42,547 nucleotides of DNA from an uncultured Verrucomicrobiota bacterium (GCA_937875495.1 CALLYA010000181.1:1-42547); one strand, 5' to 3'. Positions 23,321 to 38,947 are shown, counted from the stretch's first letter. Notes: generated from the sequence alone by a model not told the origin. Made by a program: numbers and translations.

Positions 23321-23328
23321 GGGAAACC

Positions 23329-25177: not shown

Positions 25178-25223
25178 AGTGCATCGATCCCGAAATCCCC
25201 GACCCCGATCCCGATTTCGATGG

Positions 25224-25283
25224 CCCTGACGCTCAGCACCAGCCGCCGCGTACAGAGCCGTCCGCTGCATGCGGTTGTTAGGC
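25224..25283 (-). repeat. attC-like site (terminal, degenerate core)
   Basis: Minus strand GCCTAAC...GTCAGGG. The TAA of ORF 25278 lies inside GCCTAAC. Arm pairing is weak. Confidence 0.4.
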
Positions 25284-25661
25284 TGGCAACTCCCACGCAC
25301 GCAAGCCCTCTCCACAAGTGCAGTTCTTCTGGTACCAATGAGTAGGAGCACCACAGGCCGTGCATGACCATTCAAGGGCCTGCCGTTCGAGCCAGACCTG
25401 AATGCCGTGTTCTTGGATGAACTGAAGGTTGGGAGACATGGACCAGTGATGCGGCCATTTGTCATTCATGAAGTCAGCCAACCGCGGGCATGGGTAGTCG
25501 GCGCAGAAGCAACATGCCTCTAAGCTCTTGTCCTTAGCACAATGCCTGAACTCACATGTTTTTACGTGGTCGTCAATTAAGCCACTTCGGCATCCATGGC
25601 AGTCTTCAGCACCACATGCCCCGCAGTAGAGCCCACATGGTCCGAATTGACCGGTCTTCAT
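25278..25661 (-). CDS. DUF3795-like Cys-rich protein (cassette)
   Basis: CGLYCGACGAEDCHGC...CEFRHC...CCFCADYPC pattern. Confidence 0.65.
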   Translation of the reverse strand: MKTGQFGPCGLYCGACGAEDCHGCRSGLIDDHVKTCEFRHCAKDKSLEACCFCADYPCPRLADFMNDKWPHHWSMSPNLQFIQEHGIQVWLERQALEWSCTACGAPTHWYQKNCTCGEGLRAWELPA

Positions 25662-25677
25662 CTGGTTCCTCCTTTCA

Positions 25678-25751
25678 GCCGGACGTGGAGGTCACTCGTT
25701 TCCGAAAGGTGCGCATTTCGGAGATCGAGTAGACCTCACTCATTGTTCGAC
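25678..25751 (-). repeat. attC-like site
   Basis: Minus strand GTCGAAC-aatga-GTGAGGTCTACTCG...CGAGTGACCTCCAC-GTCCGGC. It has a 13-14 bp stem but non-canonical cores. Confidence 0.45.
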
Positions 25752-26147
25752 GATTCCATGTCCTGTCTTTCGTGGGGGATTCGGAGTTCCTCCGCATAAC
25801 TTGATTGCCTTCTCCAATTCATATTGACACAAATCCTTGTCGTGGTCACACAGCTCGCCTGTGTAGAGGGCCTCCAGGGCCGGGAGCGCTTTGGGGTCAC
25901 GCAGTTGCCCGAGGGTCCAGACACCGCGATGGGTGCGATCCCAAAGGGAATGGGATTCTGAGTTCATGAATTCGATCACTGCCGCAACATCGTCTCCAGG
26001 GTGAGGATGTGCGTTCTGGGCACTCTGGCAATTCAGCCGGACACACTGGCGAATGTGCCACATGATTCCGGCGAGTGCGCCGGCGCCGAGGAGCACGCCT
26101 ATGACAACGACGCTCCCAATGACTTTCAGGATTCGTTTCCTCATCAT
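25740..26147 (-). CDS. membrane-anchored HEAT/PBS-lyase-repeat-like protein (cassette)
   Basis: N-terminal TM helix. GVWTLGQLRDPKALPALEAL resembles a HEAT_2 repeat. Confidence 0.5.
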   Translation of the reverse strand: MMRKRILKVIGSVVVIGVLLGAGALAGIMWHIRQCVRLNCQSAQNAHPHPGDDVAAVIEFMNSESHSLWDRTHRGVWTLGQLRDPKALPALEALYTGELCDHDKDLCQYELEKAIKLCGGTPNPPRKTGHGIVEQ

Positions 26148-26156
26148 GCTCCTTCC

Positions 26157-26257
26157 GTCGAACGACTCGGATCAGGCGAGCGCAAAAGCGGCACACCAAC
26201 GCTGGAAATAGCCCCCGAAACCGCGCCGCCCGGTTCGCCTGGAAGCGATGGTTAGGC
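26157..26257 (-). repeat. attC-like site (101 bp)
   Basis: Minus strand AAAATGGCCTAAC...GTTCGAC, followed by GGAAGGAGcatgATG of the next ORF. Confidence 0.55.
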
Positions 26258-26685
26258 CATTTTATGCCCGTTCCAGATCCTATGCCGCGCCTCCTTGAAC
26301 TCCGGGGCGTCGCAGGAGGTTGGCTGGAGCCAATTAGATATGACCCCATTTTTCTCTCCTCGATGTTCGGGGATTCACTTCCTCCGGCTTCATCACATAC
26401 CGGTTTGGTTCTTTCCCACGTTGTTGATGATTACCCAGTAGTCTCCTGTGATCCTTTCAAGGCTGTTTCCAAGCGGCACCGGATTCCGTTTGGATAGCGC
26501 CTTTTCTTGGACTCCGTTCCGCTCTTGTTGTATGCGATTGCGTCGACGATGCCTCCCGCGTTGCGGGCAGTCTGCATTACCTTCCAGCCCATGCAGGAGA
26601 GCCGGTACCAGGCGTAGTACATGCCGATGTTGCCCGTAACTTGCGTTTCCAGCTTCATGTCGTCCGAAAAGTAAGGCGCTTTCAC
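26252..26685 (-). pseudogene. PD-(D/E)xK-like nuclease-fold gene with at least 2 frameshifts (cassette)
   Basis: GNIGMYYAWYRLSCMGWKVMQTARNAGGI.DAIAYNKSG in frame 1, QEKALSKRNPVPLGNSLERITGDYWVIINNVG in frame 2 and EKNGVISNWLQPTSCDAPEFKEARHRIWNGHKMA-stop in frame 3. The fold call is tentative. Confidence 0.4.
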
Positions 26686-26690
26686 ACCCA

Positions 26691-26860
26691 GGCCTTCCCC
26701 TATCCGGATCGGGAGTGCCAGCCTCCCCCAAAGGGCCCAGAGGACGCGGTGGCGTTTTCGAACAATGCTTCCGCGGCGAGCACGATTCCCCCCCCTTCCC
26801 TCGATTAACTCGACGACACCGAGCTTGCTTCTCCTTCTACCTTTTCGGACGTCCTATAGC
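26691..26860 (+). repeat. mosaic dispersed repeat, copy E (partial) inside a cassette
   Basis: GGCCTTCCCCTATCCGGATCGGGAG...AGAGGACGCGGTGGCGTTTTCGAAC matches 41880..41935. CCTTTTCGGACGTCCTATAG matches the TTTCGGACGACCTCTAG module. Confidence 0.6.
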
Positions 26861-26959
26861 TTCATGTTCCCCCTCTAGGCCTAACGAAAAGGTCAGGCAC
26901 AGCCACTGGCAGCCGCACTCGCGACTGAAACCACAGTGTTGTTCCGTCTGATACTCATG

Positions 26960-27463
26960 CTACTGACCTGCGCGGTGGCTGTTGCCTGCACCGTCTGGTT
27001 CTGCCTGGCTACGGGTTTGATGCTCAAAAAGCCGCTTCGTCTCGGTCATCTTCTCTGGCAATTGGCCGAAAGCCTGCTGCAACTCCGATACGATCTCGAT
27101 AATCTGGCGCTTCTGTTCGGTCGTCCCGTGGTGTCGTGCCGCTGCAACGGTTGCGTCGTACTCCTTCCGTAACTCAACGAGCCGTCGGATTTCTCCTCGG
27201 CACTTCGCGCAATGACGAGGCTGAGAATCAACCCAGAAGAAGTAATCCTCGAACCACGCCTTCTGCTCTTTGGCTGTCCACGTGAACTCCTGTCCACACC
27301 GCTCGCATTTGAAGTCCGCGTCTATGTACCAGTGGCGAGGACATACGCTGTAGTTTTGCTTTTCAACGTTCCCCCGAACCGCTGTTTCGTGATGAATCGC
27401 CAAGGCAGCAAAGAAAAAGTGCTGCGGCATCTTCTTGGGATGTGAATTTCCAAAAATGTCCAT
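26960..27463 (-). CDS. zinc-ribbon domain protein (cassette, second gene of a pair)
   Basis: FKCERCGQEFTWTAKEQKAWFE...PRHCAKCR is a C-x2-C...C-x2-C ribbon followed by a helical tail. Confidence 0.6.
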   Translation of the reverse strand: MDIFGNSHPKKMPQHFFFAALAIHHETAVRGNVEKQNYSVCPRHWYIDADFKCERCGQEFTWTAKEQKAWFEDYFFWVDSQPRHCAKCRGEIRRLVELRKEYDATVAAARHHGTTEQKRQIIEIVSELQQAFGQLPEKMTETKRLFEHQTRSQAEPDGAGNSHRAGQ

Positions 27464-27486
27464 GTCGTCACATCTGGACCGGAATC

Positions 27487-27520
27487 AGGTGGATCCGTCT
27501 ATCTTCCCATTATGCCCAGT
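27487..27520. repeat. 34-bp short form (empty-site form) of the 167-bp repeat
   Basis: AGGTGGATCCGTCTATCTTCCCATTATGCCCAGT. It encodes the last codons (..NWA-stop) of ORF 27510. Confidence 0.8.
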
Positions 27521-28283
27521 TCGTCTGCGTCTGCCTTTTGGCGAGCGTCCGGAACCGATCCTCTAATTCCCCACGCAGGCGTTGGTGGCCCTCGCCGTTG
27601 TTCAAGTAGTACGCGTAGCGATGATGACGCAGGTCGAACGGGATATCGTCTGGGTTCTGTGTGATCGGTACCACATGTTTGCCCAGTACATGCGCTATTC
27701 CTGCTTCATAGAAAACGTTGGCGTTCCTGCCCGAGAAATCGCACACAACCACATAGGAGCGGAAGATCAGAGAGAAAACATCCTGAATCACCGTGGAGTC
27801 TTCCCATATGTCATCGGCACGCACGCACCGGAATCCGGCTGCCTCTGCCGCCGACTTGATCGTCTGGTAAACCGGTCGCAAGACTGGATCGAAAGACATC
27901 ATCACGGAGAGAAGATTGATGTCTGGTTTCTCGGCAGGCACTGAGAAGACCATCGGCGAGAAGACAATGCGCCTGGCTCCCTCGTCGGTGCACGAGATGA
28001 ACTCCCCTCCAGCCGGACATGTGCGGCCGATGTAGTCCAAAATCAGTGGGAAGTTGTCCGGTCTCGCATCAATCATGTCCTTCAGCATCTGAAGAGCATG
28101 GCCATCGTAGTCGTCGTCATTCCACCGAAGGCTGCGAAGCAGGCGCGAATGCCGGTTGACTTCGTCGAGCATCTCCGTGATGGCGCCAAGCTCTCGCCAA
28201 TTGGACTCGCTGAATCCGCTGACGACCTGGTTTTTCAATGCGATGAGCTGTCGACCCGTTGGAAGTTCCGTCTTCTCCATCAT
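27510..28283 (-). CDS. two-domain protein: unknown N-terminal domain plus a C-terminal nucleoside 2-deoxyribosyltransferase-like/TIR-like Rossmannoid domain (cassette)
   Basis: VMMSF...VYQTIKSAAEAAGFRCVRADDIW...DVFSLIFRSYVVVCDFSGRNANVFYEAGIAHVLGKHVVPITQ..DIPFDL..HR matches the pattern I know from Nuc_deoxyrib_tr/TIR-like effector domains. Not searched. Confidence 0.5.
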   Translation of the reverse strand: MMEKTELPTGRQLIALKNQVVSGFSESNWRELGAITEMLDEVNRHSRLLRSLRWNDDDYDGHALQMLKDMIDARPDNFPLILDYIGRTCPAGGEFISCTDEGARRIVFSPMVFSVPAEKPDINLLSVMMSFDPVLRPVYQTIKSAAEAAGFRCVRADDIWEDSTVIQDVFSLIFRSYVVVCDFSGRNANVFYEAGIAHVLGKHVVPITQNPDDIPFDLRHHRYAYYLNNGEGHQRLRGELEDRFRTLAKRQTQTNWA

Positions 28284-28304
28284 GTTGTATCTCCATCGCC
28301 GGCG

Positions 28305-28363
28305 CCCAAACTGCAGCGAAAACGCGCAGCGTTATGTCCGTCGGCTTGACGGCTTGGTTAGGC
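28305..28363 (-). repeat. attC-like site
   Basis: Minus strand GCCTAACCAAGCC...GTTTGGG, then GGAGATacaacATG of ORF 28283. A second short palindrome (28381..28424, GGTGAAC...GTTGAAG) lies directly upstream. Confidence 0.5.
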
Positions 28364-28419
28364 TCAGGCTTTATGTTTCACTTCAACTCCGGAATTTCTC
28401 TGTTTGCCTCCCGGTTGGT

Positions 28420-28854
28420 TCACCGCAGATTCAGGCTCATATGATGGGAGCTTAGAACAAAACCCTTGTTGAGATACAACCGATGCGCGTCATGGCGCTG
28501 GTGGTCTGTTTCCAGATGGACCGCAGCACACCCAAGCCGCTGACCTTCCAAGATTAGCCAATCTAGCAGGTCACCACCGAACCCGGCCCGCCTTCTCTGC
28601 GGATGGGTAGCCAGATCATCGATGTACAGGACCCGGCCCCACGCGAGGAAGGTAGCCACACGGAAACCGGCGACCGCTACAACTTCCTGAGCATCCTCGA
28701 TGAAGGCGATTCTGTAGCCTTCAGCCACCTGGGTACGGACCTGATCAATGAATTGGTCCTTGCTGAGATGGGGCCGCAGGGCGGCGAAGACTTCATACGC
28801 GGCTTCGAGGGCCTGAGAGTCTTCCATGTTCAGTTGTTTTACCTGATGGTCCAT
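28420..28854 (-). CDS. GNAT-family N-acetyltransferase (cassette)
   Basis: VLYIDDLATHPQRRRAGFGGDLLDWL is the acetyl-CoA binding motif A (Q/RxxGxG/A). Confidence 0.8.
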   Translation of the reverse strand: MDHQVKQLNMEDSQALEAAYEVFAALRPHLSKDQFIDQVRTQVAEGYRIAFIEDAQEVVAVAGFRVATFLAWGRVLYIDDLATHPQRRRAGFGGDLLDWLILEGQRLGCAAVHLETDHQRHDAHRLYLNKGFVLSSHHMSLNLR

Positions 28855-28890
28855 CGTTTTCCTGCGGGGTTCGGGGCCGATAGGCGTCCC

Positions 28891-28959
28891 GCCTAGCGTT
28901 CGCCATGACCGGCGCGCAAATGCCGAGCGCGACGTAACTTTTGCGCGTCCGAGTTGAGT
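28891..28959 (-). repeat. attC-like site
   Basis: Minus strand ACTCAAC-TCGGACGCGCAAA...TTTGCGCGCCGG...GCTAGGC, with an internal 8-11 bp stem. Confidence 0.5.
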
Positions 28960-28999
28960 GCATTGCTGGGCGACACCGGGTCAAAAATATCCTGATTGA

Positions 29000-29593
29000 T
29001 CACGGATGTATCTTCTCTTGCTCTGCCAGCATTTGCACGAATTGTGCAATTTTCTTTGCCCGGCTTTCAGCATTCTTTGCCGTTTGAATCCTGAACAGGA
29101 CAGCGTATCTATTTCGACTATCGAGTGTTTCGAAGAACTCCTTAGCCCGTGCGTTGCCACCTAACGCTGATTGAAAATCAGGTGGTACAGAAGACTTACC
29201 GGCCGAGTCATATGCAGCATCCCAGCGCCCGTCAAGCTTGGCACGTTCTATTTCTTTGAGTCCGGCAGGCTGCATTTTTCCTGATCCGATGAGAGCAAGC
29301 GCTTTTTCTTTGTTGATTTTTGACCACACACTCTTCGCCGAGCGTGGCGTGACTCTTTGCAGCCAGTACAGATCGCTGTGCGCCTTCTTTTGGCCGTCTA
29401 TCCAACCGAAGCAGAGCGCAACCTCAACAGCCTCGTCGTATGAAATTGATTGCACAGCAGAATTCTTTTTCGCTAGTTGCAACCATATACCGGAGGACGT
29501 GGCGTGGTTTTCGGTTAGCCATATTAGCCAGTCGCGTTGCCGTTCAAAGAGCTTGGTTGGTAGGATATTGGGTTTCTTTTGAGATTTGCTCAT
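29000..29593 (-). CDS. YdeI/OmpD-associated family protein (cassette)
   Basis: WLQLAKKNS...SYDEAVEVALCFGWIDGQKK...RNRYAVLFRIQTAK is the typical YdeI/OmdA pattern. Confidence 0.7.
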   Translation of the reverse strand: MSKSQKKPNILPTKLFERQRDWLIWLTENHATSSGIWLQLAKKNSAVQSISYDEAVEVALCFGWIDGQKKAHSDLYWLQRVTPRSAKSVWSKINKEKALALIGSGKMQPAGLKEIERAKLDGRWDAAYDSAGKSSVPPDFQSALGGNARAKEFFETLDSRNRYAVLFRIQTAKNAESRAKKIAQFVQMLAEQEKIHP

Positions 29594-29621
29594 TACAACT
29601 CATTTCGCCTCCATTGCTGAC

Positions 29622-29685
29622 GCCCTACTGAGTGTTGAGGCTTTCGGCGCGCCAGCGACGAATACTCTCCGATGCCTTGTACTGC
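29622..29685 (-). repeat. attC-like site, CTTTCGGCGCG subfamily
   Basis: 64 bp. CTTTCGGCGCG sits at almost the same offset (1 nt further in) as in 31179..31240 and 35564..35626. The cores are GCAGTAC/GTAGGGC, so AAC/GTT are both changed to TAC/GTA, which is compensatory. Confidence 0.5.
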
Positions 29686-29688
29686 TCC

Positions 29689-30126
29689 TCAGTCATCTTC
29701 CCAAATTTCCACGGGGGTGCCGTCCCTGAACACGACGGTGAGTTCACCATCCGGCCAGTTCTCGAAAAGGTACCCGATACTGAAGAAGTCTCCCTTCAGT
29801 AAATCCGTGACGTCGAGTGCATGCGGCGTGATCTTGCCGTATCCGGTGAGGGTGTTGGGCCGATCCGCCTTGACATAAGCAAGTGCCTTTTCGCTCCAGG
29901 AGGGCAGTTCGGAAATGACCGTTTGGGCTTTGGCAACGACTTCCGGTTCGAACGTCTTGTCGAGGATGAAAATGGTCATTTGCCCGAGTGGAGTCTCAAC
30001 TTGAGTTGACCACCAGGCATCATCGAACACAAACGTACCGAGTGCCGTTTCGACCTTCAGCTTCTCCTTGGGCTTTCGATCGAACCAGTTCATAATATCT
30101 TCCAGTGTAATGTTCGGCTTCGTCAT
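29689..30126 (-). CDS. hypothetical protein, 145 aa (cassette)
   Basis: Clean ORF with no motif recognised. It is preceded by a 37-aa micro-ORF (30139..30252). Confidence 0.55.
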   Translation of the reverse strand: MTKPNITLEDIMNWFDRKPKEKLKVETALGTFVFDDAWWSTQVETPLGQMTIFILDKTFEPEVVAKAQTVISELPSWSEKALAYVKADRPNTLTGYGKITPHALDVTDLLKGDFFSIGYLFENWPDGELTVVFRDGTPVEIWEDD

Positions 30127-30284
30127 TGCTCGACTTGCTCATCCTGAACTGTGATGCCTCCGTCTTCCGGTCGACAGGTCGAAGACTTGGGAGCCAATGG
30201 TGAGCGTCATGCCTTCGTCCTCCACGATCAGGTTGTGACCTGCAATGCTCATGTTGTTCGTCCACGGCCTTTCTGAAAGACGCC

Positions 30285-31169
30285 TCAATTCTCTGTTTCG
30301 ACATTCTCCTTTTTTCTTCTTACGCTGAGGATCAACAGGGCTACACCCAACAGCGGCAGTCCGATTGAGAGGGTGTTTGCCGTGATCTGGAATCTGGTTT
30401 CCAACAGAGCGGGCAGCGCCATGCCTGCCCATGGATCTTCGTCTTTCTTCCCGAAAGGAAGGATGCCGACGCCGCTGGCCGCTGGCCAGAGGCGCTCCCT
30501 TCTTGCGTACTCCATCAAACCGCGCTCAACCTCTGTGGAGACCGTGCGATTCGAGAGCGCGTACACCAAGGGGTCGAACCCGGAATCGCGGAGACAGCGG
30601 AAGGCGTTGTGCTTCATCTCGCTCGGAATTGCGGTCAACTCATTGGTATCGGAATTGCCGAGTACTGCGATCAGGACAGGGATCTGCTCTTCAGTGGGAG
30701 GAACATCGACTTCGAAACCGCGTTGGCGGAATCCCTCCGCAATCCACTCCGCTTGAGACTTGAATTTGTTCTTCTCCCACCAGGCCAACCAGGCGTTGGC
30801 GTCTTCGCCGACGTCTTGATTCGAAATCGAACGTAGAGCGCCGTCGGCGTGGGCAAGTCCGTCTCCCATGCATCCATCCAAACGCGTGCCCGGTTCGATG
30901 TGGTCAATGATCCATTTCATCCAAGACTCGTCGCCGCAGGCTCCGACTGTAAATCCGGCATCATGAAACCACCCCATGCGATGAATGCTCTCCTGAAACT
31001 GAGACCAGTACTCACGCTGGGAGTGAGATGAATACCACTCTGGGTCCAACGTGCGACGAAATGGTGCCAGCTTGTAGTACCACCAGTACCCGCAGAACAC
31101 GCCAGCACCGATGAAGACCAGTGCGAGCACGCGCGCAATGCCTCGCCAGTGTTGCTTGAACCACTTCAT
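30285..31169 (-). CDS. hypothetical membrane protein with N- and C-terminal TM helices (cassette)
   Basis: ATG chosen at MKWFKQHW, downstream of the attC core. The alternative GTG at 31190 lies inside the attC. Confidence 0.6.
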   Translation of the reverse strand: MKWFKQHWRGIARVLALVFIGAGVFCGYWWYYKLAPFRRTLDPEWYSSHSQREYWSQFQESIHRMGWFHDAGFTVGACGDESWMKWIIDHIEPGTRLDGCMGDGLAHADGALRSISNQDVGEDANAWLAWWEKNKFKSQAEWIAEGFRQRGFEVDVPPTEEQIPVLIAVLGNSDTNELTAIPSEMKHNAFRCLRDSGFDPLVYALSNRTVSTEVERGLMEYARRERLWPAASGVGILPFGKKDEDPWAGMALPALLETRFQITANTLSIGLPLLGVALLILSVRRKKENVETEN

Positions 31170-31178
31170 CTTCTTATG

Positions 31179-31240
31179 CGACAACTTCACGCCTCACTTT
31201 CGGCGCGACGGAACGTGACGGCAAGTTCCCCTTGTTAGGC
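31179..31240 (-). repeat. attC-like site, CTTTCGGCGCG subfamily
   Basis: Minus strand GCCTAAC...CGCGCCGAAAGTGAGG-cgtgaa-GTTGTCG. The TAA of ORF 31235 lies inside GCCTAAC. Confidence 0.55.
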
Positions 31241-31603
31241 TTTGCCTTTCGTCTCAATCTTCAGAATGTCAGATCCACAGACGTAAAGCCGGTTCCCGTC
31301 TGGCTTCTCAAGTTCAAAGTACACGAGAGTACAAGTGCTGAACTCGCCGTCACCAAAGAAGAGGGTGGATTTGTATTCGCAATCCTGCAGAAAATCCCCA
31401 CTCTTCATCTGAACAACGACCTTCTTTCCCTTCAACCCTCGGAACGCGGTTTCCGGGGTGGAAGGTGGTTTTGAGAACTGCTCGGGATGCAGACGCTTCT
31501 CCAAGATCTTCCACAGGGTGAAGAATACCTTGAGTCCGATGATAGCTCCGACTATTGACCCGACTCGGATCAGGAATGGTGCCATTGCTTCAATCATCTT
31601 CAT
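31235..31603 (-). CDS. hypothetical protein with an N-terminal TM helix, 122 aa (cassette)
   Basis: RBS AGGAGAA before the ATG, directly after the GTTAGGC core at 31614..31620. Confidence 0.6.
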   Translation of the reverse strand: MKMIEAMAPFLIRVGSIVGAIIGLKVFFTLWKILEKRLHPEQFSKPPSTPETAFRGLKGKKVVVQMKSGDFLQDCEYKSTLFFGDGEFSTCTLVYFELEKPDGNRLYVCGSDILKIETKGKA

Positions 31604-31613
31604 TTCTCCTGAT

Positions 31614-31654
31614 GCCTAACACCGTGCCGCCCGCAGCTGAACGGCTTGTTATGT
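31614..31654 (-). repeat. short attC-like site (41 bp)
   Basis: Minus strand ACATAAC-AAGCCGT...ACGGT-GTTAGGC. This is unusually short. Confidence 0.4.
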
Positions 31655-31784
31655 TCGCCACACTACGACTCCAGATACTTCCGGATGTCTGAGATCTGGG
31701 CCTCTAGCATATCGATTTCGCTTAGCTTTGTGCCTGGCTCACCGACATTCTTCCGAATTGCGAGGATGAGCCCACCCCACAGCC

Positions 31785-32153
31785 TCAGCATTTCACGTGC
31801 GTTTTGATCGCCACTTTGGTGTTCTTCGCCCCCCCGCTCGATAGAAATGTTGCATCAGCTTGGTTGAACGACCGCACGACTTCATCCGAGCCAATGAGGT
31901 TGAACTCGAGTGCTGTTCTTTTGTAGTCAAACGAAACAATCTGTTTCTGAGCTTTCGCGAACTCTTTCGGGTCCTTGATTCCCGCTAGCGTGCGGACAAT
32001 CGGCTCGAGTGTATCTAGGTAGATTTTCCTTCGTTCGTCTACGAGGCGTTCCTTCGCTCGCTGGAGTCGATCTATGCGCGATTGGATGAACCAAACGCCA
32101 AGTCCGACCACTCCGGCCAGCACGGTTGCGATCAGCTGTTCGTTGAGGCCCAC
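31785..32153 (-). CDS. hypothetical TM plus coiled-coil protein, 122 aa (cassette)
   Basis: GTG start with GGAGAA upstream. Its stop overlaps the ATG of a 42-aa ORF (31663..31791, ATGCTGA), which may be its frame-shifted C-terminus. Confidence 0.55.
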   Translation of the reverse strand: MGLNEQLIATVLAGVVGLGVWFIQSRIDRLQRAKERLVDERRKIYLDTLEPIVRTLAGIKDPKEFAKAQKQIVSFDYKRTALEFNLIGSDEVVRSFNQADATFLSSGGAKNTKVAIKTHVKC

Positions 32154-32175
32154 TACCTATTCTCCGATCTAGTCG

Positions 32176-32267
32176 ATATAACGTTGGCGTTTACGCGGCG
32201 GGCGCGTTGAACTAGGATTTCGGGACCGGCGTGATCGCCCGCGCTCGCGTTCCACGCTTGGTTCGGC
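32176..32267 (-). repeat. attC-like site (92 bp)
   Basis: Minus strand GCCGAAC...GTTATAT. The arms GGCGTTTACGCGGCGGGCG and CGCCCGCGCTCGCGTTCCACGCT pair well. Confidence 0.6.
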
Positions 32268-32439
32268 TCAGTAGTCGCACTGCATGTCTTTCGTGCCTTG
32301 CGACGGCGAGTTCAATTTTCGACGATTGACGATGACGCCTTCGAATCAGATAAGATCCGCCATCGGTGTCTTTTTCTGTGTATGCCAGCTGGTCGGCCAG
32401 TGGATGCGTATTCCAACTCAACGAGTCCGAGTTCTTCCA

Positions 32440-32658
32440 TCAATGCTGCCATGCCTGAACGCTCGTCATGGTCCCGGCCACGCCAGCGAACACCAGGATG
32501 AGTCCAGGGGGCAAGTGTCCGCACATGATGCAAACAGCACCACCAGCAAACGCGACAAGGGCGAGTACGAAAGAGACCCTGGCCGCACGAGGAGAAACGT
32601 TGGGAACGCCGCAGTGCAATTTCGGTGTCTTCTGTTCTCTTGGATCAAGGGGTGTCAT
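32440..32658 (-). CDS. small membrane protein, 72 aa (cassette)
   Basis: GTTCGGC-AGGAGcacgctt-ATG directly after the attC core. Two hydrophobic helices. Confidence 0.55.
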   Translation of the reverse strand: MTPLDPREQKTPKLHCGVPNVSPRAARVSFVLALVAFAGGAVCIMCGHLPPGLILVFAGVAGTMTSVQAWQH

Positions 32659-32670
32659 AAGCGTGCTCCT

Positions 32671-32731
32671 GCCGAACGATACCCTCAGCGGCGCGCGGCC
32701 CCCGCGCGTAGGCTGCAGGGTGATGTTCGAT
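32671..32731 (-). repeat. attC-like site (61 bp)
   Basis: Minus strand ATCGAAC (overlapping the TGA of ORF 32731)...GTTCGGC. The arms ATCACCCTGCAGC/GCTGAGGGTAT and CGCGCGG/CCGCGCG pair. Confidence 0.7.
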
Positions 32732-33126
32732 CAAGTCTTGTTCATTTCGTCGCTCAAACGGTAAATGGTCCGCTTGCCCTCCTCAACTCGAATAACCGAA
32801 GGCAGTCGGTTGAGATGGTTCGTGGACCCGCCGAGATGGATCGTGAAGGTGTAAACCCGGTTGGTGTCGAGGATGGAGGTCAGACGGTGGCTGGTCAGGT
32901 GAACGTGGTACTCCCGCGCTGTGTCCCGAAGAATGAGCGAGTGCATGACGAGAGAATCAGGCTCGCCGGGTGGCGGCATGCCGCCGCTACGCAGGATTTG
33001 CATCTGATTCTGGAAGATGACTGGCCGACACGTGATGATTGCCTGATTCTCAGCGGGGTGCGTCTTGCAGCCGGTGAGGGCAGCTAGCATCAGCATTGGA
33101 GGTATCCATTTCATCATTGTTCGCAT
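32731..33126 (-). CDS. putative lipoprotein, 131 aa (cassette)
   Basis: Lipobox-like LAALTGC after a hydrophobic N-terminus. Confidence 0.6.
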   Translation of the reverse strand: MRTMMKWIPPMLMLAALTGCKTHPAENQAIITCRPVIFQNQMQILRSGGMPPPGEPDSLVMHSLILRDTAREYHVHLTSHRLTSILDTNRVYTFTIHLGGSTNHLNRLPSVIRVEEGKRTIYRLSDEMNKT

Positions 33127-33186
33127 TTTCGTCAGTGCCAGTATGCGTCATGGATGAGTTCGGCCACAAGCAGGGAGCAGCGGAAC

Positions 33187-33366
33187 TTATGAGATAGATT
33201 CAGCCGTATAGCTGAGGGTGATTTCGCCATCTTGAAACGGGAATGATTCGGTTTTCAGAACCTTGTGCCAATATCCGCCCCGAAGGTGTTGCACGAAAGC
33301 ACCACAAAGGCCCCCGACGACAAGGACCACAATGAAGGCGATAGCTGTGACCAGTTTCTTTCTCAT
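33187..33366 (-). CDS. small membrane protein, 59 aa (below the ORF-track cutoff, translated by hand)
   Basis: MRKKLVTAIAFIVVLVVGGLCGAFVQHL...SIS-stop, with AAAGAG before the ATG. Confidence 0.4.
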   Translation of the reverse strand: MRKKLVTAIAFIVVLVVGGLCGAFVQHLRGGYWHKVLKTESFPFQDGEITLSYTAESIS

Positions 33367-33387
33367 CTCTTTAGCCGAACACTAATT

Positions 33388-33551
33388 AGGTGGATCCGTT
33401 TATTATCCAGAGTTGTCCCTTCCGGTCCGTATACAGCCCCTTGGTTGTCTTCAGAATAACAGGACAAGCAATTCATTGTCAACACATTGCGAACTCCTTT
33501 GATTTTTATTCGGCATGCTATGCAGATCTGCCTACCTTCCCATGATGCAGG
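33388..33551. repeat. 167-bp-class repeat, copy 2 (filled form)
   Basis: About 85% identical to 38781..38947. Flanked by internal direct repeats GGATCCGTTTAT / AGATCTGCCTAC. Confidence 0.85.
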
Positions 33552-33591
33552 TTGGAATTTTCCCCACTTTCCTAAGCGCACGATCATTCCC

Positions 33592-34341
33592 TCATCGCCG
33601 CGGCATCAGAGCGAACACACCCCAGCCCAGGTATTCACGTGTGTAAGCGGCATAGCGCTCGGGTTCTGAGGTCAGCTCGGCTCGAACCTCTTTGGCGAGC
33701 TCGTCCTCGGGATTGGCTTCAAGCCATCGGCGCATGGTGAGCCATTTGGCCGCCTCATAGCGATCCCAGCTGTCCTGGTCAGCCAGAACCATTTCAACGA
33801 GGTCGTAGCCGAGGCGGCCGAACGATGCGAGAAGGCCCGGCAGCATGAGAAAGTCGGAGATCGAATTGGCAAGACACCCCTTGGCAACATCTTCCGTTGG
33901 CGGTAACTGCCGCCAGTAGGGCTCGCCGATGAGGATGATCCCTTCGGGGCGGAGGCTCTGCGCCAGAAGCTCGATCGTGCCTGCGACTCCCCCCGCGATC
34001 CAGGTTGCACCGACACAGGCTGCCACACTGACCTTCTCGTCAGAGACATAGCCTGCAGCATCGCCATGGATGAACTTGACTTGATCAGCGACGCCGAGTT
34101 CTTCAGCGCGGAGTCTTGCTTGCTCGGTGAACAACTGGCTCATGTCGATGCCGGTGCCGATGACACAGTGATCGCGTGCCCATGTGCACAGCATCTCTCC
34201 AGAACCGCTAGCGAGGTCGAGCACTCGATCACCCGGTTCCAGACGCAGCGCCACGCCGAGAGTGGCGAGCTTTTCCGAAGTTAACGGGTTATGAATGCGG
34301 TGAGCACTCTCGGTGATGTTGAAGATCCGTGGAATATCCAA
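33592..34341 (-). CDS. class I SAM-dependent methyltransferase
   Basis: VLDLASGSGEM (motif I) and GTGIDMS. TTG start. Confidence 0.8.
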   Translation of the reverse strand: MDIPRIFNITESAHRIHNPLTSEKLATLGVALRLEPGDRVLDLASGSGEMLCTWARDHCVIGTGIDMSQLFTEQARLRAEELGVADQVKFIHGDAAGYVSDEKVSVAACVGATWIAGGVAGTIELLAQSLRPEGIILIGEPYWRQLPPTEDVAKGCLANSISDFLMLPGLLASFGRLGYDLVEMVLADQDSWDRYEAAKWLTMRRWLEANPEDELAKEVRAELTSEPERYAAYTREYLGWGVFALMPRR

Positions 34342-34393
34342 CGCATTACCAACTTTCAGGTGTGATAGATCCAGTCATTGCTACCGTCCAGAC

Positions 34394-35557
34394 TCACTCA
34401 TTCGGAATCGGGGTCTTCTCGTTGAGCATCGCCGTGACTCGCCGCTCTAGGTCGAAGCGGGCGTCGGTGTCTCGCAAGTGACCGCGTTTGTCCACCAGCC
34501 AGGAGGTGGGGATACTGAAAATCCCATACCGGACAGCAAACTGGCTCTCCCATCCCTTGCCGTCGAAATACTGCGGCCACGGCAGCTCCTTTTCTTTGAT
34601 GAAACGCCGCAAGGCGCTCTCCTTGTCATCGAGCGAAATCCCTATGACCTCGAATCCTTGGTCGTGAAGCTTCTGGTAAGTCGCCTTCACCGTCGGCATC
34701 TCGGCAATGCACGGTCCGCAGGTCGTGGACCAGAACTCGACCAACACGACCTTGCCTGCCAGCTTTGCTAAATCCACCTCGCGCCCATCCAACGCGGTGA
34801 ACCGGATGTCGAGCGGCTTCCCGATCTGATACGGCTTCGTCCCTTTCAGGATGTGATCCGCCAACGTTTTCGCTCCCCGTGGGGCGCCGGGCGTGTTCAT
34901 AATCTCCGTGACCAAGTCCTTTTGTCGGTCAGCTGTTGAACGCTGGGCAACGGCGACAAGCATTGTGTAAATCATGGAATTTGTCGGAAACTGCTTCAGC
35001 GCCGCGCGCATGTTCTCGATGCTTGCCGTCTCAAATTCGTCGTGCAGCTTGCTCATGCCTTCGGTGAACAATCGCATCCCTACTTTCTTGAAAAACGCTG
35101 CGTTTCCCGAAAACAACAAAACGCCTACGCGGTCATCTTCCGGGATGCTTTTGTCGGCCAAAACGCCGGAGACGAAGGAGGCAATCTGTTTCTCCGCGTC
35201 AGGATGTCCCGCGGCAACCGCATAGGTCAATGCGTGGACGACGGTAATGCGAGCGTCGCCAACGTTCTCGTTGGTCGGAAATCGCTCAATGAACTCGCGG
35301 GCCTTATCGGCGAAGGTAACAGCTGTTTGACCAACCATTTCTTGAAAGTCGACCACTTGCTCCGCCGTCGGTTCGTGAGACCGCCAATCATCCGGTGGTC
35401 TTAACCCTTGATGGACTTTTTCGACCTCGGCCCATGCTTTGGCAGGATCGTCTGGCAGTGTGTGGCGAGATTCGTTCTGGGCGAACAACTGCAGCTGGAC
35501 GATAAGAACTCCGGTGAGAAGAAGGGTGCGGAAGATAGATTTGATGCTCATATACAT
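34394..35557 (-). CDS. TlpA/ResA-like thiol:disulfide oxidoreductase with an N-terminal helical domain, secreted
   Basis: Signal peptide, then a C-terminal thioredoxin fold with WSTTCGPC and GISLDD. Confidence 0.8.
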   Translation of the reverse strand: MYMSIKSIFRTLLLTGVLIVQLQLFAQNESRHTLPDDPAKAWAEVEKVHQGLRPPDDWRSHEPTAEQVVDFQEMVGQTAVTFADKAREFIERFPTNENVGDARITVVHALTYAVAAGHPDAEKQIASFVSGVLADKSIPEDDRVGVLLFSGNAAFFKKVGMRLFTEGMSKLHDEFETASIENMRAALKQFPTNSMIYTMLVAVAQRSTADRQKDLVTEIMNTPGAPRGAKTLADHILKGTKPYQIGKPLDIRFTALDGREVDLAKLAGKVVLVEFWSTTCGPCIAEMPTVKATYQKLHDQGFEVIGISLDDKESALRRFIKEKELPWPQYFDGKGWESQFAVRYGIFSIPTSWLVDKRGHLRDTDARFDLERRVTAMLNEKTPIPNE

Positions 35558-35563
35558 GTTGGC

Positions 35564-35626
35564 CTCCTAACGTATACCTTCACTTTCGGCGCGGTACGTG
35601 CCGTATAGCGCAAGGCTTGGTTAGGC
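35564..35626 (-). repeat. attC-like site, CTTTCGGCGCG subfamily (63 bp)
   Basis: Minus strand AAAATGGCCTAACCAAGCC...CGCGCCGAAAGTGAAGG-tatac-GTTAGGA-GGccaacATG. The TAA of ORF 35621 lies inside GCCTAAC. Confidence 0.7.
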
Positions 35627-35836
35627 CATTTTATTGAATCGTTCCCGAACTCGGTCCATGTACTCCGGAGAAACATGCCAGTCTACCAGGCCGCACTTGG
35701 AGCAGACTATGAGTGTGAACTTCGGGATGCAAAATGCCCCCAAAGGCAGAAGAGCGGGTCCATAACCGCCATTTGCCGCAACCTTCTTTGAGAAGAATTC
35801 GTTGTTGCCGCATTTGCGGCAGCTGTTGGTTTTCAT
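35621..35836 (-). CDS. small Zn-ribbon protein, 71 aa (cassette)
   Basis: CRKCGN...CSKCG, two CxxC pairs. Confidence 0.6.
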   Translation of the reverse strand: MKTNSCRKCGNNEFFSKKVAANGGYGPALLPLGAFCIPKFTLIVCSKCGLVDWHVSPEYMDRVRERFNKMA

Positions 35837-35855
35837 GTTCTTTACATTGTCCTTT

Positions 35856-35903
35856 GCATAACGCCGCCGTTCACCAGCCGCTTGCGGCCGCGCGGCTGTA
35901 TGC
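35856..35903 (-). repeat. short attC-like site
   Basis: Minus strand GCATAC-AGCCGC...GCGGCT...GTTATGC, with complementary ends and a 6-7 bp inner stem. Confidence 0.4.
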
Positions 35904-35911
35904 GGTATGAA

Positions 35912-36256
35912 TCATGGTGTCAGTTTGGTGGTGATGGTCAATGCTGGGAAACAGAGTCCCATCATCAGAATCGTGAGGACGAGGCACTCCAGGAGGGCGA
36001 TGCCACAAGTCCACCAGAGAATGCGTTTCCGAAGATAAGAAACGAGCAGCCCTGCGATCAGCAAGACCGCGGCAATCACCGGAACGAACCGCATCCACTG
36101 GAGGGATAGAACCGTAATCTGAGCGAGCTTGGCCCCCTCAAGAATCTCGCTCCAGTGCCGATGGAACGACCCGTGGGCAACATGCATACCGTAGCCGTTT
36201 CCGATCTGAGCGATCAGCCCGGAAATCCCGGCCAAGAAGTCTATGTTCCGTTTCAT
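35912..36256 (-). CDS. hypothetical membrane protein, 114 aa (cassette)
   Basis: Three to four hydrophobic helices. Confidence 0.55.
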   Translation of the reverse strand: MKRNIDFLAGISGLIAQIGNGYGMHVAHGSFHRHWSEILEGAKLAQITVLSLQWMRFVPVIAAVLLIAGLLVSYLRKRILWWTCGIALLECLVLTILMMGLCFPALTITTKLTP

Positions 36257-36304
36257 CTTATCTGAAAGAATATCCCAAATCAGCCAACCGCCGGAAGCTT
36301 ACCG

Positions 36305-36808
36305 TCAGGCCAGTTGTAGGGGTTCAGCTGGGTGCAACAGTTGGGCGCTTTGCAGTCCCCCGACCTTGGTCAATCGTACGGTCAACCACAGGCGCCAGTC
36401 TGACGCCGGGTCTGATCGCAGCTCCCAGGCGCCAGCGAATACGTTGCCCGACTCCTGGAACCTACCGACGAATCTTACGCCGTCGCCGATGAAGGTCCAT
36501 TGATCGTCCTGGACGGTGGCCTGCATAGTGTTTTTCCCGCCTTGGCTGTCAAATGACTGCATGCTGAAGCTCTTGTTGTCAGGATCGAAGCCGATGATCT
36601 CAATTCCCTTGGTGTTGCCACTTGGCATCTCAGCATCCCATCGATGGATGAGGAAGACTCCGCCGGCCAACCACTCGTAGATGTCCGTTGGTTCATACCT
36701 TGTGGATGCTTCGAGGGAATCTCCCTTTACCTCACCGCTGGGCTTTCACGTTCCAACAAATCGGTCGAGCATCGCGTGGTCGAACGTTGCACCGGTCTGA
36801 GTTTTCAT
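36305..36808 (-). pseudogene. DUF1579-like beta-barrel protein interrupted by an in-frame TGA at 36746..36748 (cassette)
   Basis: ATG at 36808 gives MKTQTGATFDHAMLDRFVGT-TGA-KPSGEVKGDS...EWLAGGVFLIHRW..., all in one frame. The stop sits where the family has a conserved Trp (F-x-G-x-W). Confidence 0.55.
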
Positions 36809-36913
36809 GATGACGTTGCCTCCAATCCCATAGTATCAGCACATCCTTCCAAATCGAGGCCCCCCAACGTTACCGTTGAGGCGCTTCGGAAGCCCCGCCG
36901 TCACCGGCGCGGA

Positions 36914-37240
36914 TTACGAATTCGCCTCGGACGGCTTGCTTGCCGCCTGGTTTTTCTTGAACTCGAATCTGAACCGCAAAATCTTGATGACCGCGGCAAG
37001 AAAGCATGCGAATCCGGACACGGTTGCGCCAATGAACAGACCCCAGATCATCCCGACGGCGAATGCGTAACGGGTGACGGATGTTCCGGCTTCAGGACCG
37101 AACACACTCTTCACGAAATCTGGTGAAATGGCGGCAACCAACGCGCCGAAGGCGCCGCCCAGGAGGGCCGACAGCAACGACCCCACCACAATGAAGACGA
37201 AGAACCAGATTGCTCCCTTGATTGCGTTCTCAGTACTCAT
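36914..37240 (-). CDS. hypothetical membrane protein, 108 aa (cassette)
   Basis: Three hydrophobic helices and a basic C-terminal tail. Confidence 0.55.
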   Translation of the reverse strand: MSTENAIKGAIWFFVFIVVGSLLSALLGGAFGALVAAISPDFVKSVFGPEAGTSVTRYAFAVGMIWGLFIGATVSGFACFLAAVIKILRFRFEFKKNQAASKPSEANS

Positions 37241-37393
37241 TTCTCTGTCCTTTCTCGTTCCCGTACCCGTACACGCTCTCCTGTTCGCGAACCTGGTTCC
37301 CTCGCGCGGTCAGGGTCCAGCACACCGTGTAACCCCACGCCGCGAAGTCTAGAGCTACCCGGTAGACATCCAACTTCTCGTGATCTATTTCCA
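37230..37393 (-). pseudogene. internally deleted four-helix-bundle gene remnant
   Basis: MEIDHEKLDVYRVALDFAAWGY is fused to ...ARGNQVREQESVYGYG. The leader carries the GTACGCGTAC palindrome, as at 13351..13405. Confidence 0.5.
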
Positions 37394-37715
37394 TTCGCAT
37401 CCTCCTGCACTGGAACGTGTACCGCTTCGCTGTGTACGCGTACGATTCTGGGCCCAGCGTCGCAAATGAGGATTTGGCGCGGCTACGTGACAATATCCTT
37501 CATTTGTCTTGTTCGGCATTGTTCTTTCTTTCTGAACGGCGCATAGCGATCTACTGCTCGCTTTGATTCCCTGTGCACTCAATCGTCAGTGATGATGCTG
37601 CGTTGTCAAGGGGGCCAAGGTTGGGCACGTCGTGATGTTCCTTGTGTGGGGTGGCGTAGTCGTTCATGCGTATCCGTTCGTGTCGGGTAAGATGGGGGGG
37701 GGCGAACGTCACGGA

Positions 37716-37970
37716 TCAGGCGCGAGTTTTCGAGTCGCCTGCATCCACTTTGTAATGCTTAATTTTCTGTTTCCGAGAATTCACGGCAACCCCGGCGACG
37801 ATCATGCCCAAGCCAGCAATCAGCGCCAGTGTAGACCACTTGTCAAACAATTGCCGACATAGCCATACGAGGCCTGAAACAGTTTTGCACTCCAACTCTT
37901 CCCTCCCCCCATGTAGATAGAGGCCGGCTGCAGCGGCTTGTTGGGCGGCATTCATGGAAAGCTCGGGCAT
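37716..37970 (-). CDS. hypothetical small membrane protein, 84 aa
   Basis: ORF 18 nt downstream of the VOC gene, with one TM helix. Confidence 0.45.
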   Translation of the reverse strand: MPELSMNAAQQAAAAGLYLHGGREELECKTVSGLVWLCRQLFDKWSTLALIAGLGMIVAGVAVNSRKQKIKHYKVDAGDSKTRA

Positions 37971-37988
37971 CTGACTGGACGAGCACGA

Positions 37989-38450
37989 CTACGCCTCGTT
38001 GTAGGCTCTTTCGAGCTCCGCCACGTCGAGCTTCACCATCGTCATCATGGCTTCCATCACAGCCTTCACCTTCCTGGGGTCCCTATCACGGATCAGCTCT
38101 GTGAATCGTCTCGGGACAATTTGCCAGGAGAGGCCGAATGGGTCTTTAATCCAACCGCATTGCGTGGGCATTGCGCCTGCCTTCAAGAGCTTGTCCCAGT
38201 ATTCATCCACTTCATCCTGATCGGCGCAGTCCACGTAGAACGAGACCCCCTCAGAGAAGCTGAAGTACGGACCTCCGTTGTAGCCCATGAAGAGTTGACC
38301 ACCAACGACGAACTCCGCGGAGCTGATGGGACCGTCCTTGCCCGTGCGGGCGACGTTGCGTACTTCGGAGTTCGGAAACGTCGCGGTATAGAACTCGATC
38401 GCCGCTTCAAGCTGGTCGTTGAACATGAGGAAAGGTGTCACTTTGTTCAT
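37989..38450 (-). CDS. VOC/glyoxalase-superfamily protein (PhnB / 3-demethylubiquinone-9 3-methyltransferase-like)
   Basis: VTPFLMFNDQLEAAIEFY...GGQLFMGYNGGP...CGWIKDPFGLSWQIVP is the typical family pattern. Confidence 0.8.
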   Translation of the reverse strand: MNKVTPFLMFNDQLEAAIEFYTATFPNSEVRNVARTGKDGPISSAEFVVGGQLFMGYNGGPYFSFSEGVSFYVDCADQDEVDEYWDKLLKAGAMPTQCGWIKDPFGLSWQIVPRRFTELIRDRDPRKVKAVMEAMMTMVKLDVAELERAYNEA

Positions 38451-38501
38451 GGAAGTGTCCCATCTTTGAGGGCGATGCTTTTCTCCGCCCAACGTTGAGT
38501 T

Positions 38502-38756
38502 TCACCGGACAAAATGAGCGCAGCTCATTTTGGTACGGTCGAAACTTTCGTTCGAATTAATTTCATTTTTTGTCTTTTTCCAAGAAAGCTCAGGTCTATC
38601 ATTTACCCGGATCAAAAGTCGAAAGGCAAACCAGAGCAAGATCAGCGTGACTATTTGAATTGTCGATAAAACGACACAGAGCAGGATGCCCTCAAGCAGC
38701 AAGACCTCACTCAGAAATGTGATGGGGCCTCTCAGGCTGTGATTATCTACTCGCAT
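38502..38756 (-). CDS. hypothetical small membrane protein, 84 aa, AT-rich (cassette)
   Basis: Two hydrophobic helices. Its stop abuts the juxtaposed cores ACTCAAC|GTTGGGC (38487..38500). Confidence 0.45.
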   Translation of the reverse strand: MRVDNHSLRGPITFLSEVLLLEGILLCVVLSTIQIVTLILLWFAFRLLIRVNDRPELSWKKTKNEINSNESFDRTKMSCAHFVR

Positions 38757-38780
38757 AATTTCTCTATTCGAACAGAAATA

Positions 38781-38947
38781 AGGTGGATCCGTCTATCAGC
38801 CGGAGTTGTCCCTCCCGGTCCGTATACAACCCCTTGGCTATCTTGGCATAAAACAGGACAAGCAATTCATTGTCAACACATTGCGAGCTCCTTTGGTTTT
38901 TATTCAGCATGTTATGGAGATCCGTCTATCTTCCCTTATTGCCCAGT
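38781..38947. repeat. 167-bp repeat, copy 1 (filled form)
   Basis: AGGTGGATCCGTCTATC-[135 bp]-GGAGATCCGTCTATCTTCCCTTATTGCCCAGT. The ends reconstitute the 34-bp short form at 27487. Confidence 0.85.

Follow-up and report, generated by a model that had tools for sequence, protein, structure and literature searches.

The minus-strand genes at 25.2-38.9 kb of the window considered here (by which we mean the whole 42,547-nt stretch CALLYA010000181.1:1-42547, from the uncultured Verrucomicrobiota bacterium GCA_937875495.1) very probably form an integron-type cassette array without an integrase, which is in advanced decay and sits as a sedentary element in the chromosome. Such an array is a CALIN, the cluster of attC sites lacking integron-integrase that is recognised by IntegronFinder (Cury et al. 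2016, PMC4889954). A preliminary description of the sequence had proposed exactly this for positions 25224-38947, and the proposal is borne out both by two attC models that match the spacers between open reading frames (ORFs) and by searches in which no IntI was found. The limits were drawn too narrowly, since attC-type features reach 41606 above and 23882 below, so that the array, lying on the minus strand and read towards lower coordinates, extends from a GTTAGGC core at 41606 to a last attC-type site at 23981-23882, a span of about 17.7 kb holding roughly 25 ORFs. The unbroken run of short minus-strand ORFs that had been reported from 38756 down to 25278 is present in our ORF calls, and the region is indeed more AT-rich than its flank, with a G+C content of 0.51-0.58 at 25-39 kb against about 0.60-0.67 for most of 1-23 kb; the long plus-strand ORFs of the region gave no family match in Pfam.

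attC-type sites in the spacers

The first of the two models is a published one. Taxon-specific attC covariance models have been made available, one of them derived from 188 Planctomycetes attCs (Ghaly et al. 2021, PMC8352920, Supplementary Data 1), and the consensus of its profile hidden Markov model (HMM) reads GCCUAAC-AAuGC-GUU-G-CAgC [loop] GCUG-AaC-UucGuC-GUUAGGC (PMC8352920). Local nhmmer searches with this HMM put most of the top matches on the minus strand and at spacers, and yielded only weak half-sites because the attC loop is variable; they were replaced by an end-to-end Viterbi alignment, which gave 21.4 bits at 26257-26157, 20.9 bits at 32267-32176 and 17.4 bits at 23981-23882, all on the minus strand, with 7.7 bits for the best of 20 shuffles and 0.2 bits for the top plus-strand site. 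These are HMM scores, whereas the 60-bit cut-off for assigning taxonomy belongs to the published covariance model. In addition, 10 minus-strand positions from 23981 to 37946 reach 8 bits or more with the 20-nt R''-L'' part of the profile alone, where shuffling predicts 0.96 per strand for the whole window.

The second model is our own. Public metagenome contigs were scanned for the R''-L'' consensus, which recovered many true arrays for reference (one, for example, with 20 sites in 13.6 kb), and a covariance model, R1, was built from 62 aligned metagenomic attCs that came from unrelated arrays, that did not themselves contain the search pattern and across which covariation was verified in 16 base pairs. 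Searched with filters off, the window returned 26.1 bits (E 6e-5) at 32731-32671, 22.6 bits (E 5e-4) at 28971-28891, 18.1 bits (E 0.007) at 26257-26157 and 17.9 bits (E 0.008) at 25283-25224, with weaker matches at 35626, 37946, 31654 and 27004; at E of 1 or less, eight of the nine matches in the window lie on the minus strand at 25.2-38.0 kb and one lies elsewhere. A covariance search, which had been put forward as a way of checking the array, has therefore produced significant matches, four of them below E 0.01 and all four in spacers. These four sites share one strand with successive gaps of 1.0-3.8 kb, and the published HMM adds those at 32267 and 23981 to the set. This type of attC can be linked to integrons because R1 sites, scoring 51 and 48 bits, adjoin a full-length intI in the metagenomic contig L132; the encoded IntI is 49% identical to the IntI1 sequence used for comparison, and its translation holds an 'ALERK...W.W.W' stretch that we take to be the IntI-specific segment.

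The details that first drew attention to the spacers were largely found again. Four sites had been offered as examples (those at 35626, 32731, 32267 and 26257 below), and they lie where they had been placed, with the R'' and R' cores given for them; the four frames said to stop at the TAA within GCCTAAC do so (25278, 26252, 31235 and 35621, although that at 26252 is a short remnant only), and the three examples of a ribosome-binding site after a core are there as well. Two unrelated cassettes share their final 15 nt, AAAATGGCCTAACCA (35621-35640 and 26252-26270), encoding ...KMA-stop, and the conserved start of attC therefore reaches into coding sequence. Simpler approaches were of little help. 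A strict count of RYYYAAC and GTTRRRY in the window revealed no obvious enrichment, folding energy per base, computed for AAC...GTT pairs, failed to tell the sites from the G+C-rich background, scans for promoters and terminators showed no enrichment over shuffles, and an Rfam scan, which gave nothing at gathering or E-value thresholds and included no attC family among its weak matches, was uninformative.

The sites, from the upper to the lower end of the array, are as follows (MFE, minimum-free-energy structure; contigs L004 and L022 are introduced with the transporter).

41600-41606, minus strand: core GTTAGGC, 5' boundary of the transporter cassette; identity with L022 starts here, and L004 has GTCAGGC
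39660-39726, minus strand: decayed attC of the transporter cassette, R'' GCCCAAC, R' degraded to CTTGACC; 31-nt repeat with the 25283 site; no hairpin
38487-38506, minus strand: attC 3' half-site GGTGAAACTCAACGTTGGGC; 18.1 bits for the L'-R' part of the profile; local nhmmer match
37889-37946, minus strand: attC with near-consensus 5' half GCCCAACAAGCCGCTGCAGC (24.2 bits) and 3' half lost; R1 12.8 bits, E 0.17, the match extending to 37806; fold not significant
37452-37518, minus strand: attC-like closed hairpin, R'' GCCGAAC, R' mutated to GCTGGGC; z -2.6 and -4.1
35856-35906, minus strand: attC remnant, R'' minus one A of AAC, R' GTTATGC; 3' half 21.8 bits; z -0.5 and -2.6
35565-35626, minus strand: attC GCCTAAC...GTTAGGA; R1 14.4 bits, E 0.066; R and L boxes pair in the MFE, z -1.2 and -2.0
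32671-32731, minus strand: best-preserved attC, ATCGAAC...GTTCGGC; R1 26.1 bits, E 6e-5; R boxes paired
32176-32267, minus strand: attC by sequence, GCCGAAC...GTTATAT; HMM 20.9 bits; hairpin not recovered in the MFE
31614-31654, minus strand: shortened attC, 41 nt; R1 12.0 bits
31191-31240, minus strand: attC remnant; R1 7.1 bits, E 5; no attC fold
28891-28971, minus strand: attC with R'' GCCCAGC and R' GCTAGGC; R1 22.6 bits, E 5e-4; R boxes pair in the MFE, z not significant
28300-28363, minus strand: attC 5' half GCCTAACCAAGCCGTCAAGCC (19.0 bits), 3' half decayed; two small hairpins, not the attC fold
26879-27004, minus strand: weak attC ending in GTTAGGC; R1 9.9 bits, E 1; HMM 7.2 bits
26157-26257, minus strand: attC by sequence, GCCTAAC...GTTCGAC; HMM 21.4 bits; R1 18.1 bits, E 0.007; fold not recovered
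25677-25750, minus strand: strong hairpin after an ORF, R'' GTCGAAC, R' decayed to GTCCGGC; z -3.85; R boxes unpaired
25224-25283, minus strand: attC by sequence, R' GTCAGGG (GTT to GTC); R1 17.9 bits, E 0.008; 5' half 15.8 bits; no attC fold
23882-23981, minus strand: lowest attC-type site, R'' GCATAAC, R' GTCGTAT; HMM 17.4 bits; 5' half 21.9 bits; nhmmer E 0.007

Decay of the sites and a fixed cassette order

Both models place the window sites well below intact ones. Real attCs score 25-88 bits with R1, the best 150 above 51, and the window sites at most 26 bits; sites in intact metagenomic arrays reach 30-54 bits with the published HMM, against 17-21 bits for the best three here. Folding gives a similar picture. 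When the 62 real attCs were folded they had a median free energy of -31 kcal/mol and a median z of -5.4, with 92% below -2 and 74% pairing R'' with R' in the MFE; of the 18 window sites folded, about 12 lie above z -2, and there are two at which a z below -4 goes together with R-box pairing. The wording 'imperfect palindromes' of 'canonical' architecture accordingly holds for a minority. Of the four original examples, 32731-32671 is a closed hairpin (-22.5 kcal/mol, z -4.3) and 35626-35565 closes without being significant, while 32267-32176 and 26257-26157 form no hairpin, their z being about 0; bottom-strand folding as a whole, which had been suggested as a check, recovers an attC-like hairpin at 32731 and at 37518 (z -2.6 and -4.1) and fails to do so at most other candidate sites. 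End-to-end closure that is not significant is seen at 35626, 28971, 31654 and 35906, and the attC fold is not adopted at 26257, 25283, 32267, 23981, 28363, 31240 and 39726.

The cores tell of decay too. AAC and GTT are both intact at 35626, 32731, 32267, 31654, 27004 and 26257, and R' is mutated to GTC, GCT or CTT at 25283, 23981, 37518, 28971, 25750 and 39726. Mutated cores and poor folds together suggest that most sites in the array can no longer recombine, and at most two, 32731-32671 and 37518-37452 (the latter without GTT), would still be usable. Other traits of attC persist: an unpaired G or C occupies the L'' bulge position in the R1 alignments of 32731, 25283, 26257, 28971, 35626 and 37946, a layout for which the 62 reference sites show covariation, and site lengths are mostly 60-101 bp, where roughly 57-141 bp is expected, the exceptions being 31654-31614 at 41 bp and the 126-bp model match at 27004. 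The 41-nt site is a deletion derivative of an 87-nt site (20.3 bits) at 3011-3097 of contig L159, from a strain 98.9% identical to this one, and 46 nt are missing from it. Within 31614-31654 stands TTCAGCTGCGGGCGG, which is the 3' arm of the 87-nt site in reverse-complemented form and suggests a palindrome-driven, template-switching deletion and not simple loss. At 28891-28971 the normally invariant AAC and GTT are both altered, to AGC and GCT, and the R boxes still pair over 8 bp; this double change, a single case, could be due to chance or to selection for the hairpin.

Strain comparison bears directly on whether cassettes still move. Contigs found by identical-protein look-up provided at least 10 assemblies or samples at 98.7-100% identity, including chromosomal contigs of 385 kb and 94 kb, and all of them align collinearly with the window outside a single segment, 33494-31949, which is replaced. 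In this comparison, which the preliminary description had named as a possible test, gene order is conserved, with no cassette-wise presence or absence among these near-identical assemblies, apart from that one segment, whose breakpoints lie away from attC cores. The left one falls inside a repeat of about 180 bp and the right one inside the ORF 32153-31785, and because they lie in a non-attC repeat and in an ORF, the variation is not mediated by attC cores. What other strains have in its place are copies of a second repeat family (230-300 bp) and different small ORFs. The segment corresponds to L159 517-2718 and to 14952-17195 of contig L167, and in the alternative version an 89-aa membrane ORF has a well-formed attC-like hairpin behind it (L159 about 2313-2376); this version ends with an attC 5' half, GGCGAACAAAGCGTTGGACG, joined to the C-terminal part of ORF 32153-31785. 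The 180-bp repeat occurs twice in full in the region.

38758-38942, minus strand: copy A of the species-specific repeat of about 180 bp, not attC (repeat comparison)
33365-33548, minus strand: copy B, with TTGACA-N18-TATTCT; left breakpoint of the sole strain-variable segment (repeat and strain comparison)

As to the integrase, none of the scanned window ORFs matched Phage_integrase or IntI (Pfam, tblastn), and tblastn with IntI1 and the L132 IntI gave nothing at E<1 in 301 kb of the species' loci, which include 5.9 kb past the upper end of the window; neither was an intI remnant found in these 301 kb. The early remark that no integrase was in sight thus extends to the 5.9 kb beyond the upper end and to the species' other contigs examined. 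No integron integrase was found within 4 kb of the array. Of the other features of a complete integron, promoters showed no enrichment in the scan, and attI sequences, which are not conserved, offer no search target.

The rival that survives best, and which we still hold to be quite unlikely, is that the array is active, with an IntI encoded elsewhere acting in trans on attCs that merely belong to a divergent, lineage-specific type and so score poorly. In its favour, one CALIN in two shares its replicon with an IntI gene (PMC4889954), and at 32731-32671 there is a site that looks to be fully functional, with 26.1 bits, z -4.3 and both AAC and GTT unaltered. The transporter cassette described below has moved between genomes fairly recently, judging by an identity of about 90%, and strains do vary in one segment of the array. 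However, folding, which is independent of any attC model, leaves most sites without the attC hairpin, the essential GTT is mutated in at least five of them, cassette order is identical in at least 10 assemblies, the sole variable segment breaks in a non-attC repeat and an ORF and not at G|TT, and intI was not found in 301 kb of the species' DNA. Because cassette order is frozen within the species, the array seems a fossil and not an active system.

For the decayed CALIN that we favour, we would picture the following history. Each unit would once have been a promoterless ORF followed by an attC site, and an IntI integrase would have added the units singly at an attI site, the bottom strand of each attC folding into a hairpin and recombining at the core's G|TT. 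The integrase and its attI platform would afterwards have been lost or separated from the array, and the attCs would next have drifted, with AAC and GTT triplets mutated, stems broken and internal deletions arising. Some cassettes would have become pseudogenes, two unrelated species-specific repeat families would have entered, and the cassette genes would at present be ordinary, fixed chromosomal genes.

The transporter cassette and other repeats

One cassette has been seen outside this species. The CitMHS transporter above the proposed array had been taken for its flank, and is itself a cassette, as judged from a unit that is shared with other metagenome-assembled genomes (MAGs) and bounded by the GTTAGGC core. 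A scan of a genome collection (blastn) found L004, a contig labelled Ca. Aegiribacteria, in which window positions 41613-39698 alone are common, at 89% nucleotide identity; the match begins about 7 nt upstream of the 41606 core, at 41613, with GTCAGGC at the equivalent place, and attCs of 24.9 and 23.4 bits lie upstream of the transporter on the same strand. In L022, a contig labelled Syntrophotalea, the transporter is 92% identical in amino acids to that of the window, and identity with the window starts (41606) precisely at the GTTAGGC that terminates a clean attC, the two sequences being unrelated further upstream. The flanks of the unit are unrelated between the window and both contigs. 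At the other end of the cassette, the R''-L'' half of the 39726 site repeats the 25283 site (84% over 31 nt), and its 3' half differs from L004 by a 15-nt deletion and a 14-nt insertion, in an alignment made by eye. A unit recurring in different arrays with its junction at a core has been demonstrated for this transporter cassette alone. L004 is LQBI01000024.1, of 335 kb, with attCs on one strand at 1465-1543, 2456-2532 and 5817-5897 where G+C is 41-49%, and its planctomycete-like transporter cassette, at 9972-11925, is flanked by insertion sequence (IS) fragments.

The two repeat families deserve separate mention. Copies A and B of the 180-bp repeat are 85% identical, TG stands upstream of the near-consensus promoter motif in copy B, and each copy ends in GGATCCACCT directly before the start of a short reading frame with a hydrophobic stretch, of 84 aa after one copy and 59 aa after the other; the repeat is found directly before small hydrophobic ORFs in three different contexts. 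Its leader of about 95 nt ends in that same GGATCCACCT, which resembles the 3' end of 16S rRNA. The repeat is confined to this species among all loci compared, and it marks the array's sole recombination hot spot; a short relative at 27478-27525 resembles the element minus its central 130 bp or so. The 180-bp repeat might be a mobile module of promoter and leader by which expression in a promoterless fossil array is restored or controlled, or else the front end of a small-toxin stabilising module, a proposal that we regard as rather unlikely. The second species-specific intergenic repeat, of 140-300 bp, is present at 10530-10831 (plus strand) and at 39189-39468, 41853-42118 and 26659-26761 (all minus strand); its copies are 75-87% identical, occur both in the array and in ordinary chromosome, with extra ones in the variable gap of L159 and L167, and may be of the MITE (miniature inverted-repeat transposable element) type.

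That these repeats, by homologous recombination or MITE-like transposition, mainly assembled the gene content, with the attC remnants incidental, strikes us as very unlikely. The sole strain-variable segment does begin in the 180-bp repeat and is filled elsewhere with 230-bp repeat copies and different ORFs, and the species' contigs also diverge past the end of the window, but the repeats explain one junction only; the other 20 or so bear attC-type sequence, the cross-genome transporter junction falls at an attC core, and repeats are found outside the array too, at 10530-10831. The divergence in question concerns two contigs of the same strain (L001 1-4494 and L002 1-3464), which part just past the window's upper end (42470-42547) at a sequence read by eye as a decayed four-helix-bundle gene, one leading to GH2 and 3keto-disac_hyd genes and the other to ABC-transporter and PDZ genes; the difference comes either from a true rearrangement or from a repeat that made the assembly ambiguous. 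Beyond the upper end, ABC-transporter, PDZ and FG-GAP genes lie on the other strand.

It is extremely improbable, finally, that the region is a non-integron genomic island of small genes whose hairpins are terminators or REP-like repeats resembling attC by chance: many spacers do have weak attC scores or none, strong hairpins at 25750-25677 and 36920-36865 lack the attC fold and two other repeat families populate the region, yet two independent models match the spacers of one strand far above shuffles and flanks, half-sites such as that at 37946 (24.2 bits) are nearly identical to the published consensus GCCTAAC-AAnGC-GTT-G-CAGC, the shared transporter unit has its break precisely at GTTAGGC, beside the clean attC of L022, and the terminator-like scan showed no enrichment.

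Some points nevertheless weigh against a decayed CALIN. Only part of each genome was covered, and an intI elsewhere in the chromosome could act in trans on the few intact sites. The published Planctomycetes model was applied as its filter profile HMM and not as the full covariance model, and the calibration behind the R1 E-values was shortened. At about half of the ORF junctions no attC stands out statistically, and the units there are taken for former cassettes from their context. The SnoaL and 90-aa ORFs above the transporter, too, have as their attC evidence only a weak 3' half-site.

Cargo and relation to known arrays

The cargo that had been named from the sequence, comprising GNAT, YdeI, VOC, TlpA, methyltransferase and DUF3795 proteins, is supported by Pfam (3-dmu-9_3-mt/VOC, AhpC-TSA and OmdA/YdeI among the families), which adds Zn_ribbon_13, AbiJ_NTD5, zf_Tbcl and a fragment of DUF1579. 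At least two pseudogene fragments and the two other repeat families interrupt the array. A tblastn search for cassette homologues in the metagenomic arrays gave one distant match only, OmdA at 43% identity. The ORFs are listed here in array order, from ORF calls unless a family is given, in which case from Pfam.

39763-41583, minus strand: 606-aa CitMHS/Na_sulph_symp transporter, a large cassette
38502-38756, minus strand: 84-aa ORF, no family match
37989-38450, minus strand: VOC / 3-dmu-9_3-mt cassette ORF, E 6.6e-39
36914-37240, minus strand: 108-aa hydrophobic ORF
36305-36670, minus strand: DUF1579 fragment, pseudogene, matching profile positions 43-85 of 155 only
35912-36256, minus strand: 114-aa hydrophobic ORF
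35621-35836, minus strand: Zn_ribbon_13 ORF, TAA stop within R''
34394-35557, minus strand: 387-aa TlpA-like / AhpC-TSA ORF
33592-34341, minus strand: methyltransferase ORF
33187-33366, minus strand: 59-aa ORF
32731-33126, minus strand: 131-aa ORF, no family match in Pfam
32440-32658, minus strand: 72-aa ORF
31785-32153, minus strand: 122-aa ORF, holding the right breakpoint (31949) of the strain-variable segment, from strain alignment
31235-31603, minus strand: 122-aa ORF, TAA stop within GCCTAAC
30285-31190, minus strand: 301-aa ORF
29689-30126, minus strand: 145-aa ORF
29000-29593, minus strand: OmdA/YdeI ORF
28420-28854, minus strand: GNAT ORF
27510-28283, minus strand: AbiJ_NTD5 ORF
26960-27463, minus strand: zf_Tbcl ORF
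25740-26147, minus strand: 135-aa ORF
25278-25661, minus strand: DUF3795 ORF, TAA stop within R''
24012-24710, minus strand: 3keto-disac_hyd ORF (E 4.6e-35), followed by the 23981 site

The last of these, at 24012-24710, is probably the last cassette. Two readings made by eye were abandoned: 'HAD-like' debris at 39.0-39.3 kb had no Pfam support, and a 109-aa ORF at 25174-24845, taken for a four-helix-bundle (23S rRNA IVS) protein, had no Pfam match. Below the array, the minus strand at 22300-23800 holds what look by eye like type I restriction-modification remnants, including an HsdR-like N-terminal fragment, with two copies, about 180 bp apart, of a stretch of about 90 bp ending in the frame LHQAFAGEL-stop, and a 250-aa ORF at 23320-22568 has a Zn_ribbon_Top1 match and a weak 23S_rRNA_IVP match in Pfam.

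In comparison with known systems the array is closest in kind to other CALINs, with at least two same-strand attCs within 4 kb, co-oriented ORFs, no intI pseudogene detected nearby and a cargo that is mostly of unknown function and does not consist of antibiotic resistance. It differs in being larger than most, 83% of CALINs having fewer than six attC sites (PMC4889954), and in that most of its sites are too decayed for a normal attC threshold; a standard run of the IntegronFinder type would probably report a handful of sites, possibly split into 2-3 small CALINs. The sites themselves come close to the Planctomycetes type (PMC8352920), with the same arrangement of boxes and almost the same consensus: R'' GCCTAAC and L'' GTT-G-CAGC, the latter with a single additional unpaired base, are separated by AAnGC, and L' GCTGAAC and R' GTTAGGC by about 6 nt. 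The 17-21 bits reached by three of them nevertheless fall short of the 30-54 bits of intact metagenomic sites with the same HMM.

Among chromosomal integrons, the Vibrio cholerae superintegron is likewise a long array of small, mostly uncharacterised and co-oriented cassettes, with a family resemblance among its attCs. In superintegrons intI, attI and the Pc promoter are retained, the attCs are highly uniform and fold well, and strains vary cassette by cassette; the present array, by contrast, is without an integrase, its sites are heterogeneous and decayed, and its order is fixed. It is also reminiscent of the Xanthomonas chromosomal integrons with inactivated intI and stable arrays that Gillings and colleagues are said to have described in 2005. 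These, too, are old chromosomal arrays in which turnover has ceased and inheritance is vertical, although there intI or its pseudogene still adjoins the array at a conserved locus, and no remnant is visible here.

Integron arrays and CALINs have already been documented in Planctomycetes, and the array described here adds an example and reveals no new mechanism. There is a caution in it for annotation, in that standard attC thresholds under-call decayed arrays and may take cassettes for flanking genes. That the 1.9-kb transporter cassette recurs at about 90% identity in MAGs whose labels place them in other phyla is evidence that cassettes pass between uncultivated bacteria. The region also documents the fate of an integron array after integrase loss, in which cores mutate, deletions arise in association with hairpins and cassette order becomes fixed, and other repeats then become the source of rearrangement.

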